From an uncultured delta proteobacterium (GTDB lineage Bacteria > Desulfobacterota > Binatia > Binatales > Binataceae), in the NCBI GenBank assembly GCA_963808235.1, contig CAWEEQ010000004.1:3104001-3168000 (forward strand): a DNA stretch of 64,000 nucleotides, read 5' to 3'. Positions 53,877 to 61,488 of this stretch are shown piece by piece. The notes beneath the pieces are model-generated. The model searched no databases, had not been told where the DNA came from, and worked only from the letters and a program-made list of their open reading frames with translations. Each line of letters opens with the position of its first letter. The first letter of the stretch is position 1. Both the position numbers and the translations under genes were made by a program.

Positions 53877-53996
53877 CCCGCTTTCGAATCTAACAACTGC
53901 TGAAGCGCGTTCTTCACGCCCGGTCGTGACCAATCCAACGCGCCGATATGATGAGCCGCGATTTGGCCCTTGCCGTTTATTATAGGTGTCTCCGGG
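53877..53996 (-). pseudogene. Diverged duplicate of the tlpA 3' end
   Basis: 102/120 identity by hand alignment to 54838-54957. Confidence 0.85.
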
Positions 53997-54101
53997 CCAT
54001 GTCGCGAGAGCCGCTCTGTGAGCCCATATCGACGCGATCTATGGTTCTGCCGGGGTGACATTTGGCAAACAGCGACGCGCTCGGATAGCATCGCCGGGCA
54101 G

Positions 54102-54848
54102 ATGAGCTTCTCGGAACTGCTGATCAGGCCCTCGATTATCGCGGCCATTCTCGAAAGGCGCAGACTTCGGGCGGCCTTCAGGGAAGTTTACCGTAAATTC
54201 CGCCCCTACACGATGATTCACGAGGACCGGTACGTGGAAAACCTCGGACTCTGCGCCAAATTCGGGGCTACGCCCGGCTGCGTAGTGGAGTGCGGAGTGT
54301 GGCGCGGGGGAATGATCGCAGGGATGGTTGCGGTGCTCGGCGCCGGGCGGCAGTACTTTCTGTTCGACAGCTTCGAGGGATTGCCACCCGCAAGCGAAGA
54401 GCTGGACGGCGCGTCGGCGATCGCATGGCAAAGCAACACCAGGTCGGCGGCCTACTACAACAACCTCACCGCCGCGGAGGAAGAAGCCGCGGCAGCGATG
54501 AAGCTTTCCGGCGCGACTTCGTTCTCGATAGTAAAGGGCTGGTTCAATGAAACGATTCCGCGTTTTGCACCTCCATCCGAGATCGCGGTTCTGCGACTCG
54601 ATGGCGATTGGTACGAATCGACCCGGGTCTGCCTGGAAAATCTTTATCCTCACCTTGCGCCGGGCGGAATAATAATTATCGACGACTATTACGACTGGAA
54701 CGGGTGTGCACGGGCCGTCAATGAATTCCTTTCAGGTCTCGCGTCGCCGAATGTTGTTCCGAGGCTCAGCCAGTTCCACGACCGGATCGCCTACCTGGTC
54801 AAACCCGGTCTGGCGCGGTCCCTGATGAACGGTCTATCCAGCTTTTGA
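54102..54848 (+). CDS. TylF/MycF/NovP family O-methyltransferase
   Basis: YTMI, VVECGVWRGG, LFDSFEGLP, KGWFNET, LRLDGDWYEST, IIDDY. Confidence 0.92.
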   Translation: MSFSELLIRPSIIAAILERRRLRAAFREVYRKFRPYTMIHEDRYVENLGLCAKFGATPGCVVECGVWRGGMIAGMVAVLGAGRQYFLFDSFEGLPPASEELDGASAIAWQSNTRSAAYYNNLTAAEEEAAAAMKLSGATSFSIVKGWFNETIPRFAPPSEIAVLRLDGDWYESTRVCLENLYPHLAPGGIIIIDDYYDWNGCARAVNEFLSGLASPNVVPRLSQFHDRIAYLVKPGLARSLMNGLSSF

Positions 54849-55412
54849 ATCCAGCAACTGCTGAAGCGCGTCCTTCACGTCCGGCCGCGACCAGTCGAAC
54901 GCGCCCATATGATGGGCCACGATTTGGCCCTTGCGGTCGATTATAAATGTCTCCGGGACCCCGCTCATTTCGTAAGTCTCGCTGATCTTGTTCTCGGGGT
55001 CGAGCAGGATTGTGAAGTGAAAGCCGTTCTTTTCGACGTACGGCGCCACCATCGCGCGGCCTTTGGTGTCCTGGCTGACCGCCAGCATCACGAAGTCCTT
55101 GTTGTTCTTGAAGTCCTCGTACAGCGTCTCCATCGAGGGCATTTCCTCGCGGCAGGGTCCGCACCAGGTCGCCCACACGTTTAGAAAAATCACCTTTCCG
55201 CGCAGCGACTCGAGCGATACGGTATGACCGTCAAGCGCCTCGAGCTTGAAATTTGCCGCCTGGCTTCCCGCCGCGACGGTCGCATCCGATTGCGACTGTT
55301 CGCTACCCAGCGGCGCACGCGTTCCCTGACGCCCGGAGATCGCAACCAGCGCGATTCCGACAACCACCACGACCGCTGCGACCGCGTAGAGAATCTTGTT
55401 CGTGGAATCCAT
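54834..55412 (-). CDS. TlpA/ResA membrane-anchored thiol-disulfide reductase
   Basis: N-terminal TM, NVWATWCGPCREEMP, GVPETFIID. Confidence 0.93.
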   Translation of the reverse strand: MDSTNKILYAVAAVVVVVGIALVAISGRQGTRAPLGSEQSQSDATVAAGSQAANFKLEALDGHTVSLESLRGKVIFLNVWATWCGPCREEMPSMETLYEDFKNNKDFVMLAVSQDTKGRAMVAPYVEKNGFHFTILLDPENKISETYEMSGVPETFIIDRKGQIVAHHMGAFDWSRPDVKDALQQLLDSKAG

Positions 55413-56421: not shown

Positions 56422-56874
56422 ATGCGCGCAGTTCTTCAACGGGTCAGCCGGGGCGAGGTACGGTCCGGCGGCCAGGTCCTCGGTCAAATCGGGCGCGGCT
56501 TTGTGGTTTTGCTCGGAGTTGCCCGCGACGACACCGAGGCGGACGCCGCCAAGCTGGCCGATAGAATCCTCGGGATTCGGGTATTTGCCGATTCCAATGG
56601 CAAGATGAATTGCGCACTCGCGGCGGTCGGCGGCGAACTTCTGGTGGTGTCGCAATTCACTCTGCTAGCCGATACCGACTCAGGACGACGGCCGTCGTTC
56701 ACCGGTGCCGCGACTCCCGACGAAGCGCGCCGCCTGTATGAGCACTTTGTCTCGCTCGTACGCAGCAGCGATGTTGATGTCAGAGTTGCGACCGGCCAGT
56801 TCGGCGCGACGATGGAAGTCGAGCTGGTGAACGATGGGCCGGTAACGATCATCCTCGACAGCCGCGCGAATTGA
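56422..56874 (+). CDS. dtd: D-aminoacyl-tRNA deacylase
   Basis: MRAVLQRV, SQFTL, GRRPSF, NDGPVT. Confidence 0.96.
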   Translation: MRAVLQRVSRGEVRSGGQVLGQIGRGFVVLLGVARDDTEADAAKLADRILGIRVFADSNGKMNCALAAVGGELLVVSQFTLLADTDSGRRPSFTGAATPDEARRLYEHFVSLVRSSDVDVRVATGQFGATMEVELVNDGPVTIILDSRAN

Positions 56875-56991
56875 AGAATCCGGAAAAGAAAAGTTGAAAC
56901 GCGAGTTTCGTCGCCTCCTCTACGCTGAGATTCAAAGGGCGCCTCTGAGTTATATGATGGCACGTTTGAGGCGGCATTTTCTGAGGCGCGG

Positions 56992-57387
56992 GTGGAGAAA
57001 CCCCATTTGGCTCGTTATTATCCTCGGGCGCTAGAGCGGAAGGCCAAAGGCGAGGATCAGCCCGAATTAGTCCCAAACGAAGAGGAAGAAGAAATTAACT
57101 TGGAGCACATTTTACCGGAGCAGCCGGAGCAGAACTGGCCAGATATCGCGCCGGAAATGGCCGAGGCCTACTACAATCGGATAGGCAACATGGCGCTGCT
57201 CCAAGCGAAGAAAAATTCCACGATTGGGAACGCGCCGTTCGACGACAAACGGAAAGTTTTCGGGCAATCGGCATACATACTGACGGCAGAAGTGGGTGCT
57301 AAAACCAAATGGACTACGACTGAGGTTCAACAGCGGCAAAAGCATCTTGCGCAGCGTGCGGTTGAGACTTGGCCGTTGGCGGTATGA
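56992..57387 (+). pseudogene. DUF1524-like HNH domain fragment (GmrSD C-terminus)
   Basis: LEHILP...RIGNMALL...KN..IGNAPF..K...WT....RQ; no upstream DUF262. Confidence 0.7.
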
Positions 57388-57713
57388 AGCCGCGTCAGGT
57401 CACCGCGCTCGCGCTTGTGGGCTTCTTCGCGCTGATCGTTATGACCGGCTGCTTAGCCCCTTGGAACTTTAGTTATTATCCAGACCCAAGCGCTCACACG
57501 GCTGGCTATAAATGCCCACCGCCCGAGGAGATGAGTCATTTTGTTGTGACCAAGACTGCGCCGTGTACCTGGATACCGGGAGAGATGTTCGCTGCGTCCT
57601 GTTGGGACGAGGAAATTGCAGCTATGAATGAAGGACGCGGCTGCGTTCCCGAGCCCAGTCCGACACCGACAGCGACACCCACTTCTACTGCGACTCCAAC
57701 CGTGAGTTCGTAA
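57384..57713 (+). CDS. Hypothetical lipoprotein with Pro/Thr-rich tail
   Basis: MTGC lipobox, four further Cys, PSPTPTATPT tail. Confidence 0.65.
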   Translation: MKPRQVTALALVGFFALIVMTGCLAPWNFSYYPDPSAHTAGYKCPPPEEMSHFVVTKTAPCTWIPGEMFAASCWDEEIAAMNEGRGCVPEPSPTPTATPTSTATPTVSS

Positions 57714-57844
57714 ATTAAGCCACTTCGCTTTTCAAATGACGCTACTCGATCCTAAAGGCGCTCGAATGACGCCAGTAGCTGGGGTAGCCGTTCTATTGTC
57801 ATGCGGTTGGGCGAGTAGTATTGCTTCTCTTGCCGATTAGGCGG

Positions 57845-57942
57845 CTACCTGTCCGCGGAAAGGGCTGAGCCCACCATAAAGTTTTCGGATTTTTACGTAA
57901 CTCTTCTGCCCGTTTGCGGACGCCGGGCAAGAAGGAAGGGTT
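57845..57942 (+). promoter_or_regulatory. Putative structured cis-regulatory leader RNA
   Basis: Hairpin 57903-57912/57924-57934 overlapping the RBS; its loop TTGCGGAC is complementary to GTCCGCGG 57851-57858. Confidence 0.5.
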
Positions 57943-59085
57943 ATGTCTGCAACTCAATCCTCGCCAAAATCACTGCCTGCAAATCCCAGCGCGGAGTACC
58001 TGCGTAAGGAGGCCAAGCGTCTCGCGCGCGATGAGGCGATCCAGCTTACCGCCGCGCAGCGCCGGCTGGCACATGAGTACGGTTACAGAAGCTGGGCCGA
58101 ATTGATGACGGCGGTGCAGAAGATGGCGTCGGCGGGCGGCGCCGGCATCGGCGCCAATCCTTCTAAGCCGGTTGGCTCGACTCCAGTTAGCGACAGCGGT
58201 GCGAATGTCTTCCCGTTGCTGCCGTTGCGCGGACTGGTTGCGTTCCCTCACGTTTCCTATCCGATCTTTGTCGGGAGACCGACGTCGATAAAGGCGGTCC
58301 AATGCGCGAAGGATCGAGAAGTTCCGATCTTCCTGGCTGCGCAAAGAGATCCGAAAAGCACGGACCCATCGAGCTCCGAGATGTACCAGGTTGGCAGTCT
58401 CGGAAGGGTGATCGAAGCGATGCAGTTCCCCGACGGGAGCGTCAAAACCATCATCGAAGCCGACCGACGGGCGCGGGTGAATCGCTTCATCTTCGATACG
58501 GATTTCTCCAAGGCCGAAGTCGAGGAGATCGAAGAGACCGCGATTTCCGAGGCGAGGATCGAGGACCTGGTTCCCCTGGTGATTTCGGCGTTCATGAGGA
58601 GACGCGCCAAACCATTGCGCCAAAAAAAATTCCATCGCATTCGATCGAGGTCCCGAGGGAAAATCGAAGTGCTGGTCGGTGGCGGGAGCGTCGAGGCACC
58701 GCTCGAGCCGCTCAACGAGCGCCTGTCCAAGCCGGTCGAAGGGCTGCGCATTTCGGTTCGCGCCCTCAAGGGCCTGCGGACCGCGGATATCAAGTGCGTC
58801 CGCGATCTGGTCCAGCGCACCGAGGAGGACATGCTCAAGATCAAAAACTTCGGCCGCAAGGTGCTCGACGAGATCAAGGAGATACTGGCCAGCATGGGGC
58901 TGACACTGGGCATGCCCGAGGCGTGGGTTGTGGCGGGAACAGATGCCGGCAGCGCCTCGGCGCTCGCCGATCGGATCGCGAGCGAGCTGCCGATGGAACT
59001 CGCATGGAAACAGGAGCTGCTGGAGCTTCTCAACCCGGCCCACCGGCTGGAGAAACTCTTAGCCTACTTGAATGTGCTGCGCTGA
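57943..59085 (+). CDS. Chimeric protein: helical N-domain plus Lon substrate-binding domain with inserted RNAP alpha-CTD
   Basis: LPANPSAEYLRKEAK..AQRRLAHEYGYRSW; PLLPLRGLVAFP..IFVGR; ISVRA...IKNFGRKVLDEIKEILASMGLTLGM; LADRIAS..KQELLE..RLEKL. Confidence 0.85.
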   Translation: MSATQSSPKSLPANPSAEYLRKEAKRLARDEAIQLTAAQRRLAHEYGYRSWAELMTAVQKMASAGGAGIGANPSKPVGSTPVSDSGANVFPLLPLRGLVAFPHVSYPIFVGRPTSIKAVQCAKDREVPIFLAAQRDPKSTDPSSSEMYQVGSLGRVIEAMQFPDGSVKTIIEADRRARVNRFIFDTDFSKAEVEEIEETAISEARIEDLVPLVISAFMRRRAKPLRQKKFHRIRSRSRGKIEVLVGGGSVEAPLEPLNERLSKPVEGLRISVRALKGLRTADIKCVRDLVQRTEEDMLKIKNFGRKVLDEIKEILASMGLTLGMPEAWVVAGTDAGSASALADRIASELPMELAWKQELLELLNPAHRLEKLLAYLNVLR

Positions 59086-59114
59086 TTCGGGAGGACATCG
59101 AAAAAGGGAAAAAG

Positions 59115-59140
59115 ACACAGGCAGGGACGCCCGTGCCACA
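59115..59140 (-). repeat. REP-like element, reverse copy of 40035-40058
   Basis: CACAGGCAGGGACGCCCGTGCCAC versus GTGGCACGGGCGTCCCTGCCCGTG. Confidence 0.7.
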
Positions 59141-59202
59141 GGAATTTGGAAAGACAGTTCCTTTGCCACTAGAATGTCCCGGTGCTCGGAGGCGAGAGAA
59201 CT

Positions 59203-60036
59203 ATGCCGGAAGACAAATTTGTTCAGGTCAACGAGATGCGGCTTCACTACCGAGACTTCGGAAGCGAAGGCAAACCTGCCCTGCTCTTCATGCACGGTCT
59301 GACGGGGAATGCGCACTGCTTCGATCACGTCGCGCCGGAGTTCGTCGGCACGCATCACGTGCTCGCGCTGGATTTTCGCGGCCATGGAGACAGCGAGTGG
59401 CATCGCGACGGAGAATACGCTTTTCAGCGTCAGGTGAGTGACGCGGTTGGGTTTCTCGAAGCGCTGAACGTCTCGAAGGTCAGTTTGATCGGAAGCTCTC
59501 TTGGCGGCGCGCTCGCGATGGTCCTCGGCGCGATAAAGCCGGACTTCGTCGAGCGAGTAGTGCTTAACGACATCGGGCCGGAAATCAATCTTCCCGAACC
59601 TGATGAAGCGGCGGAAGCTCTGGACCTGCTAAACCAGCAGTTCTCGGACGCAGCCGAAGCGCTCGACTACTACAGGCGATGCTACCCTCCAGCGCGAGTG
59701 CTTCCAGATACCGTCGCGATCGAATTCGTACGCAACTCATTGCGAGTCGCCGATGGCGGGTCTCTGCGCTGGAAAGCAGATCCTCGCGTTCAGGCGGTCG
59801 CGCCGACCTCCAGCACTTCAGGTTCCTCGCCGGGGATGTGGCCGCTGTTCGACGCGGTCAAAGCTCCAATCCTGGTGATTCGCGGTGCCGAGAGCGAGAC
59901 GTTGCTCGCGAGTACAGTCGCGAAGATGGTTGCGCGTCGGTCCGGTATCCGCGCGGTTGAGGTTCCCGGAGTGGGTCATACTCCATGGTTGTCTGAGCCA
60001 ACGGCGCTGGCCGCGCTGCGAGAGTTCTTGCGCTAG
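59203..60036 (+). CDS. Alpha/beta hydrolase
   Basis: HGLTG, DFRGHGDS, GSSLGG, GAESE, GVGHTP. Confidence 0.92.
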   Translation: MPEDKFVQVNEMRLHYRDFGSEGKPALLFMHGLTGNAHCFDHVAPEFVGTHHVLALDFRGHGDSEWHRDGEYAFQRQVSDAVGFLEALNVSKVSLIGSSLGGALAMVLGAIKPDFVERVVLNDIGPEINLPEPDEAAEALDLLNQQFSDAAEALDYYRRCYPPARVLPDTVAIEFVRNSLRVADGGSLRWKADPRVQAVAPTSSTSGSSPGMWPLFDAVKAPILVIRGAESETLLASTVAKMVARRSGIRAVEVPGVGHTPWLSEPTALAALREFLR

Positions 60037-60096
60037 AGTTCTTGCGCTGAGGAAGTCCCTTCCGATCTTTTCCTGCGTGCTGTAAGTAAACTCTCT

Positions 60097-60945
60097 ATGC
60101 CGAAGATATGGCCGGTGCATTACGCTCTCGGGATGGCGGGAGTAGCTGTCCTCCGAAACTGGATGTCTGGCGACGAAACCGCTCGGGCATCCGCGGAGGA
60201 ACTCCGGACGCTGGCCAACAGATTCAGCGAAGATCCCTCGCTCAGCTTTCAGCTCGACATACCCGACATGGACGTAGAGAGCGGCTACCGTCTTTGGGCT
60301 GACACATACGACGATTTGCATAATCCGCTGATCGCCATCGAAGAGCCGATCATCCGGGCGCTGATCGATGCGATCCCGCCCGGTCGCGCTCTGGATGCCG
60401 CATGCGGAACGGGGCGCTATGCTCGCCTTCTGAGTGAGCGTGGCCATCAGGTCGCCGCAGTCGATTTGTCCGCCGAGATGATCGAAAGAGCGCGCGCGAG
60501 CTCACCGGACGTCGAGTTCAAGCAGGGAAGCCTCGAGGCGCTACCGTTTGATGACGAGCGGTTTGATCTCGTGATGTGCGGACTTGCGTTGACTCATCTG
60601 CCCGAAATATCACGCGCGATTTCCGAAATCCGGCGCGTGCTGAAGGTCGGCGGCATCGCAGTGATCGCGGACCATCATCCGATGGCCGGTTTCCTGGGCG
60701 GCAGCGCCATCTTTCAAGACAAGGAGCGCTACTATCGGAACGTTAGGAGTTTCGTTCATGCGCATTCTGAATACGTTTCGGCATTCGTCGCCGCGGGCCT
60801 TGAAATACGGGAATGCCACGAGCCGCTAACGACAGAGGAACTGGCATCCAAGGGCCCATTGTTCGCGGTGTCTCCCAAAGCTTTCCTGGAAGGAACGGTC
60901 GGAATGCCGCTCGCGCTGATCTGGCGGGTGGTCCGCAATCGGTGA
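60097..60945 (+). CDS. Class I SAM-dependent methyltransferase
   Basis: LDAACGTGR, VDLSAEM, LPFDDERFDLV, LKVGG. Confidence 0.92.
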   Translation: MPKIWPVHYALGMAGVAVLRNWMSGDETARASAEELRTLANRFSEDPSLSFQLDIPDMDVESGYRLWADTYDDLHNPLIAIEEPIIRALIDAIPPGRALDAACGTGRYARLLSERGHQVAAVDLSAEMIERARASSPDVEFKQGSLEALPFDDERFDLVMCGLALTHLPEISRAISEIRRVLKVGGIAVIADHHPMAGFLGGSAIFQDKERYYRNVRSFVHAHSEYVSAFVAAGLEIRECHEPLTTEELASKGPLFAVSPKAFLEGTVGMPLALIWRVVRNR

Positions 60946-61469
60946 GGAAGAGCCGAGCCGCGGCGCCCGAGATTCTTGGCGTCGATCACATCTATTTGAG
61001 CGTCGCGGAATTTGCGCGGTCGCGAATCTTTTACGACCGCCTGATGAAATCGCTCGGCTTCAAGAAAGGGACTTTCCCCGTCGGCGGTGAACCTCATTGC
61101 CACTATTACAATCGCAACTTCCAGATAACGATTCGGCCGGCACGCAGCCGAAGATCAAAACACGATTCCTTTTCACCGGGGCTACATCATCTATGTCTTC
61201 GGGTGGCGAATCGTGCGGCGGTAGATGACATCGCCGGCCGGTTGCGCGCGATGAGAATCGCGATCGAGGGACCTCGGTTGTGGCCGGAATACGCAAACGA
61301 CTATTACGCGGTGTTCTTTTCCGATCCCAATGGAATTCGGTTAGAAGTAATGAATCACATCGAGCGGCGGAAGACGGTGCGCAGGTTATGGAACCAGCTG
61401 GAAGGCTTCAACAATCCACTTGATCGGCTGGCGCGAAAGGCGCGACGATCCAGGAAGAAAGGAAACTAA
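60942..61469 (+). CDS. VOC/glyoxalase family protein
   Basis: GVDHIYLSV, PGLHHLCL, YYAVFFSDPNGIRLE; GTGA overlap. Confidence 0.9.
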   Translation: MRKSRAAAPEILGVDHIYLSVAEFARSRIFYDRLMKSLGFKKGTFPVGGEPHCHYYNRNFQITIRPARSRRSKHDSFSPGLHHLCLRVANRAAVDDIAGRLRAMRIAIEGPRLWPEYANDYYAVFFSDPNGIRLEVMNHIERRKTVRRLWNQLEGFNNPLDRLARKARRSRKKGN

Positions 61470-61488
61470 CCGAGGACTCTGAACTGCG

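Follow-up and report, generated by a model that had tools for sequence, protein, structure and literature searches.

A stand-alone Lon N-type protein with an RNA polymerase alpha-subunit C-terminal domain nested in its surface loop in an uncultured Binataceae genome

Domain layout of the P0001 gene

The stretch of DNA analysed here (the window; 64,000 nucleotides, positions 3,104,001 to 3,168,000 of contig CAWEEQ010000004.1 in assembly GCA_963808235.1) comes from an uncultured member of the Binataceae and carries the gene for P0001, a protein in which a copy of the C-terminal domain of the RNA polymerase alpha subunit (alpha-CTD) lies inside a Lon N-type substrate-recognition domain (Lon N). 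A first-pass annotation, made from the sequence alone, had read the gene as one uninterrupted open reading frame (ORF) of 380 amino acids (aa) with this nested arrangement behind a small helical N-terminal domain. The frame was confirmed and the boundaries given for its parts were right to within a few bases (Table 1).

Table 1. Coordinates of the P0001 gene, its parts and the surrounding features within the window (pLDDT, predicted local distance difference test; AF2, AlphaFold2)
Feature	Position	Strand	Remarks
Whole ORF, protein P0001	57943..59085	+	380 aa and stop, ATG start, uninterrupted
Shine-Dalgarno-like purine-rich stretch AGAAGGAAGG	57930..57939	+	3 nt between its end and the ATG; read directly
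N-terminal three-helix motif (N-motif), residues ~9-62 (LPxNPSxEYLRKEAKRLAR...AQRRLAHEYGYRSWAELM)	57967..58128	+	AF2 helices 17-31, 35-45 and 51-64, pLDDT 92-98
Gly/Ser/Pro low-complexity linker, residues 63-88	58129..58206	+	pLDDT <50 in both models
Lon N beta-rich subdomain and first long helix, residues 89-225	58207..58617	+	PF02190; matches 3ljc 18-145, E 6.7e-27; pLDDT >90
Upstream tether of the insert, residues 226-255	58618..58707	+	first half basic (KKFHRIRSRSRGK); second half alignable to the linker between the rpoA domains (EAR..P.LNE)
Inserted alpha-CTD, residues 256-324	58708..58914	+	PF03118, 73.9 bits; PDB alpha-CTD chains down to E 2.9e-14
Lon N closing helical subdomain, residues 325-380	58915..59082	+	matches 3ljc 168-207; helices 335-348, 353-361 and 365-378, pLDDT ~96
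Strain-specific segment of 4.6 kb, flanked by dtd and the DUF1285 gene	56865..61481		missing at the same place in same-genus relatives; holds the P0001 gene
Truncated C-terminal GmrSD/HEC-06-type defence nuclease remnant, 131 aa	56992..57387	+	GmrSD_C E 9.5e-25; PADLOC HEC-06 E 1.6e-40, profile 432-556 of 558

In the Pfam scan, LON_substr_bdg (PF02190) matched residues 90-377 of P0001 with 125.5 bits (cut-off 28.7, E 3.5e-36, profile positions 2-199 of 200), and RNA_pol_A_CTD (PF03118) was nested within this match at residues 258-316 (cut-off 23.8, E 8.2e-21), both profiles thus scoring over their cut-offs. The N domain of E. coli Lon (PDB entry 3ljc) aligns to P0001 in two stretches, residues 90-217 and 337-376, and therefore the insert interrupts the Lon N domain, which bears out the earlier reading. 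Many alpha-CTD chains in the PDB match residues 257-330. According to the alignment, the insert comprises about 99 residues (~226-324; window 58618-58914) between the two Lon N halves and replaces about four residues of the insert-free relatives, which read ...RRAKTFGEDNPEAW... at the place where P0001 reads ...RRAKPL[~99 residues]PEAW....

No AAA+ or protease family (no AAA, no Lon_C) was found on P0001 in the Pfam scan, as the earlier reading had it; the ORF ends at 380 aa and the next ORF encodes an alpha/beta hydrolase. The NCBIfam endopeptidase La model reached 93 bits against a cut-off of 891, the NCBIfam rpoA models matched residues ~253-324 only and scored far under their full-length cut-offs, and Pfam gave no match to the alpha N-terminal dimerisation/assembly domain. 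P0001 is thus neither a Lon protease, as it is devoid of the AAA+ and protease modules, nor an RNA polymerase alpha subunit, as it is devoid of the alpha N-terminal domain. PF02190 is its sole Lon-derived domain and its length of 380 aa fits the stand-alone Lon-N (LotP-like) class of approximately 200-400 aa. A promoter and terminator scan found nothing upstream of the gene.

Two AF2 runs were carried out. With 94 family rows in the alignment, the N-motif and both Lon N halves were modelled at pLDDT >90, the N-motif as three helices, and the insert, covered by 4 rows, was modelled poorly. With alpha-CTD rows added, residues 260-320 reached pLDDT 87-89 and the Lon N domain, for which 5 rows were present, was poor. 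In both runs, residues 226-254 of the tether remained at pLDDT <50. From these two separate models we read the alpha-CTD insert as a domain that folds by itself and is held by flexible tethers, the geometry between the domains being outside this claim.

Scaffold family and origin of the inserted domain

A search over 5.8 billion proteins was used to collect relatives of P0001. A total of 120 were listed, on which the family counts below rest, and homologues were found both with the insert (P0002, P0003, P0004 and P0007) and without it. Over the full length, P0001 shares 78-82% identity with P0002 (383 aa), P0003 (376 aa) and P0004 (380 aa), which have its nested architecture, as does the fragment P0007 (82% identity). 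All four originate from separate JGI or ENA metagenome contigs. A chimeric assembly was considered and is ruled out by these three full-length homologues and one fragment, which come from other collections and have the same architecture. Among the four full-length loop-form members, the mean pairwise identity was 0.88 for the N-motif, 0.85 for the Lon N beta part, 0.79 for the first Lon N helix, 0.80 for the alpha-CTD insert and 0.84 for the closing Lon N helices, as compared to 0.64 for the linker (residues 63-88) and 0.49, with indels, for the insert tether (residues 226-255). The inserted domain therefore evolves like its host domains and unlike a spacer, and this pattern of identities indicates a real gene under constraint. 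No frame break was found among these four members.

Support at the level of individual sequencing data was obtained for one end of the insert. A low-depth Logan contig of run X1 (426 nt; window 58430-58855, 2 differences) bridges the upstream junction between Lon N and the insert, and this run may be the sample behind the genome. Hence, of the interval 58600-58950 singled out in the first-pass annotation, the upstream junction is covered by this one low-depth contig, and no bridging piece for the downstream junction (58914/58915) was present among the listed low-depth Logan contigs. No RNA data set was listed among those holding the gene. A single-protein search of genome contigs returned just two distant Lon or rpoA matches. 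The loop form accounts for 5 of the 120 listed relatives, forming one small clade whose representative stands alone at 50% clustering.

The scaffold formed by the N-motif and Lon N, with a length of ~265-290 aa, is common in soil metagenomes, and one scaffold relative is labelled Candidatus Binataceae by its source. P0001 falls within this definition, having the motif LPxxPSxEYLRKxAKRLAR...AQRRLAxEYGYxxW followed by the Lon N domain. The N-motif is the most conserved part of the scaffold family and is found once in this genome. A total of 67 matches to it were recovered, of which 50 are accompanied by PF02190, 15 are ankyrin-repeat proteins and one is a GNAT acetyltransferase (ankyrin and GNAT proteins listed as P0265-P0281). 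The earlier statement that the motif is fused to other effectors thus holds for the ankyrin proteins; for glyoxalase, the only trace is a sub-threshold Pfam match (E 0.1). The N-motif also matches the N-terminus of the NCBIfam model PRK05973 'DNA helicase' (E 8e-6), and an ESM Atlas search with it gave unnamed clusters at 0.82-0.83, below lead level.

PF03118 was detected in 20 of the 120 listed relatives, in the Lon N loop in 5 of them and between the N-motif and Lon N in the remaining 15. Five of these 15 N-terminal forms were taken as bearing a C-terminal tail, and the tail was read in four. The tail of P0085 matches the NusG C-terminal domain (1nz9 E 4.8e-13, TIGR00922 E 7.9e-16), the top 20 of its 23 PDB matches all being NusG; Pfam KOW scored above cut-off in P0085 only. 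The Lon N loop that bears the alpha-CTD in P0001 is occupied in P0057 by sigma-54 region I (RpoN models, positions 6-48; PF00309 with 42.2 bits against a cut-off of 23.8). The alpha-CTD, sigma-54 region I and NusG-KOW are all tethered protein-docking modules of the transcription apparatus.

A Lon N tree was built from the beta part (105 rows) by a quick method. A clade of 28 rows (SH-aLRT 98) contains the loop clade (97) together with 24 insert-free rows, the N-terminal alpha-CTD forms make up a separate 21-row clade (96) and the sigma-54 pair a third clade (100), all three being nested among insert-free forms. The tree thus places module-bearing proteins on three separate branches of one scaffold, and this host-domain phylogeny indicates that the two alpha-CTD placements were captured independently. 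Among the proteins of 666-2000 aa only ordinary Lon proteases were listed, with PF03118 in 0 of 120, a result of little weight.

Segments of another or uncertain kind were also observed. In P0084, which belongs to the sister clade that includes P0057, the Lon N loop runs into a segment with a weak, sub-threshold GAF-like match (E 0.007), on a contig that may be truncated. P0091, P0093, P0095 and four more proteins, nested among the KOW-tailed forms, have a segment of ~60 residues in the N-terminal alpha-CTD slot; it has no Pfam or NCBIfam match and may be either a degenerate alpha-CTD or a different module.

The genome also has a normal rpoA gene, which encodes 360 aa and follows rpsD at C4:458 kb. 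The insert is 72% identical to the CTD of this rpoA at the amino acid level and 77% at the nucleotide level, and 78-83% identical in nucleotides to the rpoA genes of other members of the order, in which the CTD protein sequence is almost invariant (13 rpoA genes). In the alignment, the rpoA inter-domain linker (EAR-P-LNE) is partly retained just before the inserted domain. A second PF03118 match was found in 12 of the 151 genomes of the order, namely two Lon N fusions, nine stand-alone mini-genes and one second-rpoA-like match in a bin with 7% contamination. The genome tallies in this work (same-genus, order-wide and Lon paralogue) include G010, G027, G028, G065, G079, G102 and G113, which are flagged as unpublished; the sequences shown and the individual claims draw on other genomes. 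The two fusions are that of this genome (loop form) and that of G105 (N-terminal form). The stand-alone alpha-CTD frames are 69-112 aa long (called ORFs 69-90 aa) and occur in G012, G025, G082, G085, G051, G055, G123, G108 and G061 (loci L130, L131, L132, L133, L136, L137, L156, L158 and L159); no shared gene context was seen around them in the four loci compared (L156-L159).

The DNA identity of the insert to the stand-alone alpha-CTD genes is 69-73%, and its third-codon-position identity is 0.51-0.73 to rpoA versus 0.42-0.49 to the stand-alone genes. A phylogeny of the insert against rpoA had been suggested in the first-pass annotation. In the protein tree the loop copies stand next to the stand-alone mini-genes (95/81), and approximately unbiased (AU) tests reject neither this placement nor one with rpoA (p 0.12-0.46). 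The protein tree favours a route via the mini-genes, and the DNA and third-position identities favour a direct origin from rpoA. We conclude from these comparisons that an rpoA gene of this lineage, or a close derivative of one, served as donor. P0001 is a clean natural nested domain insertion whose donor gene, linker included, is still recognisable.

The residues of the insert were compared using the E. coli alpha-CTD numbering, in agreement with PMC11434276 and PMC1874639. Residues R273, K276, G277, N302, G304, K306 and V307 of P0001 correspond to E. coli R265, N268, C269, N294, G296, K298 and S299. The first-pass annotation had R265, N294, G296 and K298 as retained and N268, C269 and S299 as changed; this stands for all seven positions (N268 to K, C269 to G, S299 to V), with the qualification that G at position 269 is also present in the rpoA of the genome and its lineage and is hence not peculiar to P0001. 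The complete '265 determinant' (R265, N268, C269, G296, K298 and S299) is not present in the insert. The comparison was extended to 28 paralogous alpha-CTDs (27 distinct), i.e. 5 loop, 12 N-terminal, 5 N-terminal with a KOW tail and 6 stand-alone copies. R265, G296 and K298 are retained in 28/28. N268 is present in 13/13 rpoA and 4/4 outgroup alpha-CTDs and in 0/28 paralogues, including all six stand-alone mini-genes compared; the paralogues other than P0001 have K, T, A, I, S, E, Y, Q or H at this position. S299 is replaced by A or V in 5/5 loop copies and mostly kept in the other paralogues, the '287' surface (TEQDM) is nearly unaltered in the loop copies, and other residues stand in place of R317/L318 at the point of return into Lon N. 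The tether (residues 221-240) is rich in Arg and Lys, with a KKF.RIR stretch that recurs in loop-form members.

According to PMC11434276, R265 and N268 of E. coli touch the backbone and the minor groove of the DNA, N268A and N268W abolish UP-element activation and N268T abolishes PBAD activity. Read with these mutant phenotypes, the comparison shows that the paralogues retain the fold and lack a residue on which canonical DNA reading depends.

Genomic surroundings of the P0001 gene

The P0001 gene lies in a strain-specific island (Table 1) that contains, in addition, the GmrSD/HEC-06 remnant, a small ORF without a family and genes for the alpha/beta hydrolase, an S-adenosylmethionine (SAM) methyltransferase and a vicinal oxygen chelate (VOC) protein. 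In the loci of same-genus relatives (L125-L129, 5/5), a gap of 8-64 bp separates dtd from sequence that matches the window from 61482 onward. Among 45 same-genus genomes, some of which gave shorter pieces only, no listed syntenic piece reaches beyond the end of dtd (window ~56880). Neither flanking repeats nor a compositional (GC) shift were found in the island (56865-61481). The remnant, upstream of the P0001 gene, covers only the last ~125 positions of the ~560-aa GmrSD/HEC-06/Orf5 nucleases.

The insert-free subfamilies have other neighbours. In the 265-aa scaffold subfamily, ileS is the next gene in 15 of 55 loci. In the 285-aa insert-free subfamily, the closest to P0001, 10 of the 55 loci have a PCMT-type methyltransferase gene as the next one (+1) on the same strand (e.g. 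L120 7911-8783), and P0090 is a fusion of the 285-aa-subfamily scaffold with such a methyltransferase. The PCMT-like homologue of this genome is located 92 kb from the P0001 gene (C4:3069210-3070112).

Other observations were made in the same genome and family. Within the window, ~0.84 kb of extra sequence (~53996-54833) separates blocks that are contiguous in relatives, and a repeat of ~120 bp at C4:3157876-3157996 is 85% identical to window 54837-54957. The Lon paralogue nearest to the Lon N of P0001 lies outside the window (C4:626521-627112, minus strand) and has its PF02190 match split over two frames (positions 1-161 and 160-199), a split that hints at a frameshift in this genome or an error in its sequence. 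In P0056, residues 49-142 match positions 767-859 of the PADLOC PglW model weakly.

Proposed role of P0001 and alternative explanations

We propose that P0001 is a soluble cytoplasmic accessory protein, consisting of a stand-alone Lon N substrate-recognition domain behind a portable three-helix motif. On the surface loop that joins its two Lon N halves, the beta-rich and the helical one, it displays a diverged, tethered alpha-CTD copy, which was captured from an rpoA gene within the order and brought part of the rpoA linker with it. The displayed domain would no longer be a canonical reader of UP-element DNA and may instead act as bait for the proteins that usually dock on the alpha-CTD, i.e. 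transcription activators or other ligands. The Lon N scaffold may couple the captured proteins to quality control, the likeliest outcome being a hand-over to, or modulation of, the Lon of the cell in the manner of LotP; simple sequestration would be the alternative outcome. P0001 is thus tentatively read as a bait or adaptor by which ligands of the alpha-CTD would be caught and fed into quality control of the Lon type. The data above show the architecture of the protein, where the insert came from and how conserved it is, its residue pattern, the position of the gene in the island and the parallel fusions of relatives, its bait role, its partners and the Lon link being what we infer; we regard this reading as possible and short of probable.

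This reading gains plausibility because sister branches carry other docking modules, N268 is lost in all paralogues and LotP offers a precedent. LotP, the stand-alone Lon-N protein of 'Candidatus Liberibacter asiaticus', binds Lon and chaperones and raises the degradation of a SulA reporter by Lon (PMC8371691), and SoxS, an activator that binds the alpha-CTD at the 265 determinant, is itself under Lon control (PMC9638938). Docking modules on a substrate-recognition domain, together with the lost DNA residue, LotP and SoxS, therefore favour a bait or adaptor.

Several points weigh against it. The partners of the bait and its contacts with Lon and with activators are ones that we infer. Next to the genes of the closest insert-free subfamily, the conserved gene is one for a PCMT-type methyltransferase and not for Lon. 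The fusion is rare (2 of 151 genomes of the order), and a strain-specific island beside a defence remnant suits an accessory or conflict role equally. The alpha-CTD tree does not establish separate captures, as a single clade of all fused copies has an AU p of 0.38. Finally, the retained R265, G296 and K298, the change of N268 to Lys and the strongly basic upstream tether leave room for some nucleic-acid binding.

The last point leads to an alternative in which the alpha-CTD and its basic tether bind DNA with altered specificity and so place the Lon N scaffold and its recruits on the chromosome as a nucleoid or promoter anchor. The three residues kept in 28/28 copies, the positive charge that Lys adds at position 268 in P0001, and the Arg/Lys-rich tether with its recurrent KKF.RIR are what such an anchor would have, and Lon itself is a DNA-binding protease. 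We nevertheless consider it unlikely, given that N268 is lost throughout, that in E. coli the DNA-dependent function of the alpha-CTD is abolished by substitutions there, among them T, the residue of several copies, that the S299 determinant is changed in every loop copy, and that the modules of the sister branches, sigma-54 region I and NusG-KOW, dock proteins and are not DNA readers. Even less probable, and to our mind very improbable, is a tolerated functionless insertion, a recent accident in an accessory gene. The restriction of the loop form to one small, isolated clade and the location of the gene in a strain-specific island would agree with it; the identity of the insert (0.80, against 0.79-0.85 for host domains and 0.49 for the tether) in members that have diverged to 78-83% and contain no frame breaks, the directional changes common to all five loop copies and the comparable fusions in two other branches do not.

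A decoy without proteolysis would explain the same evidence as the bait reading. As an anti-activator, P0001 would titrate alpha-CTD ligands off RNA polymerase, with Lon N as a stable or oligomerising scaffold only. The stand-alone alpha-CTD frames in 9 of 151 genomes imply that a decoy needs no Lon N scaffold, and the presence of the alpha-CTD at two positions in two separate Lon N clades suggests that the scaffold contributes function, hence we hold this version to be quite unlikely. A decoy may also belong to a conflict system, in which the alpha-CTD (sigma-54 region I or NusG-KOW in relatives) would mimic the targets of transcription-hijacking phage or plasmid factors and the scaffold would sense or neutralise these. 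Plant nucleotide-binding leucine-rich repeat (NLR) proteins with integrated decoys carry a copy of a pathogen-targeted host domain inside a sensor protein, which is an analogy only, as P0001 has no immune signalling or effector domain. Patchy occurrence of the Lon N-alpha-CTD fusion, the island adjoining the truncated nuclease, the weak partial PglW match of P0056 (E 4e-6) and the retention in all copies of R265, the residue ADP-ribosylated by T4 Alt/ModA, would suit such a role. PADLOC assigned no family at E <= 0.01 to P0001, P0005, P0085 or P0057, no effector-like domain is present, no relative was found on viral contigs, the insert-free relatives adjoin the housekeeping-type ileS and PCMT genes, and two loci with the N-terminal alpha-CTD form have no neighbour in common; a role in conflict is accordingly very doubtful.

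We return to the bait or adaptor reading for its relation to known systems. In the literature searched, supplements being outside the search, no description was found of Lon N with an alpha-CTD, sigma-54 region I or NusG-KOW, in keeping with the view of the first-pass annotation that the architecture was undescribed. LotP is the one studied stand-alone Lon-N protein, and P0001 is grouped with that class, to which it adds the nested alpha-CTD and the N-motif. Both possess a Lon N-type domain without AAA+ and protease modules, the class being one by description and not by sequence; LotP differs in that it has no inserted domain and that no N-motif has been reported for it, and in that Lon binding is known for LotP and presumed for P0001. 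The N domain of LonA (E. coli 3ljc, B. subtilis 3m65) is homologous over both subdomains, and the closest full-length Lon relatives in the order belong to one of two Lon paralogues, with 45-49% identity over residues 83-218 of P0001. P0001 differs from LonA in the missing AAA+ and Ser-Lys protease modules, the ~99 extra loop residues and the 60-residue N-motif. From RpoA, with which it shares the CTD, the kept residues and part of the linker, it differs in the missing alpha N-terminal domain, the changed N268 and S299 and the replaced R317/L318. The Lon adaptors or activators SmiA, HspQ and LarA are small accessory proteins that alter the substrate choice of Lon, i.e. the functional class proposed here for P0001; they are not known as Lon-N domain proteins, and homology to P0001 is not expected.

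It is mainly on the tethered alpha-CTD, sigma-54 region I and NusG-KOW that regulators dock to bacterial RNA polymerase, and copies of these modules in three branches of one substrate-recognition scaffold point to an unnoticed link between quality control and transcription regulators. If the bait idea is true, these proteins would be natural affinity reagents with which an uncultured phylum could be searched for ligands of the alpha-CTD, sigma-54 and NusG, and they would be the first adaptors built on Lon N whose specificity module can be read. A wider proposal, to which we give a low likelihood, is that the proteins of this soil lineage with an N-motif and Lon N form a modular 'transcription-machinery mimic' family, the three kinds of bait catching class I-type activators, enhancer-binding AAA+ proteins and Rho or ribosomal S10, which would be handed to Lon-type proteolysis or PCMT-type repair. 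If true, the inputs of RNA polymerase would be subject to a post-translational layer of control, or to a guard system, of an undescribed kind.

A complex of the insert-free relative P0005 with the linker and CTD of the rpoA of this genome was modelled (score 0.00, mark 0.32) and weighs neither way on binding. In other metagenomes, many tandem alpha-CTD-like repeats, with up to 11-13 matched stretches, were observed in P0121 (1031 aa), P0159 (900 aa), P0144, P0141 and P0136.

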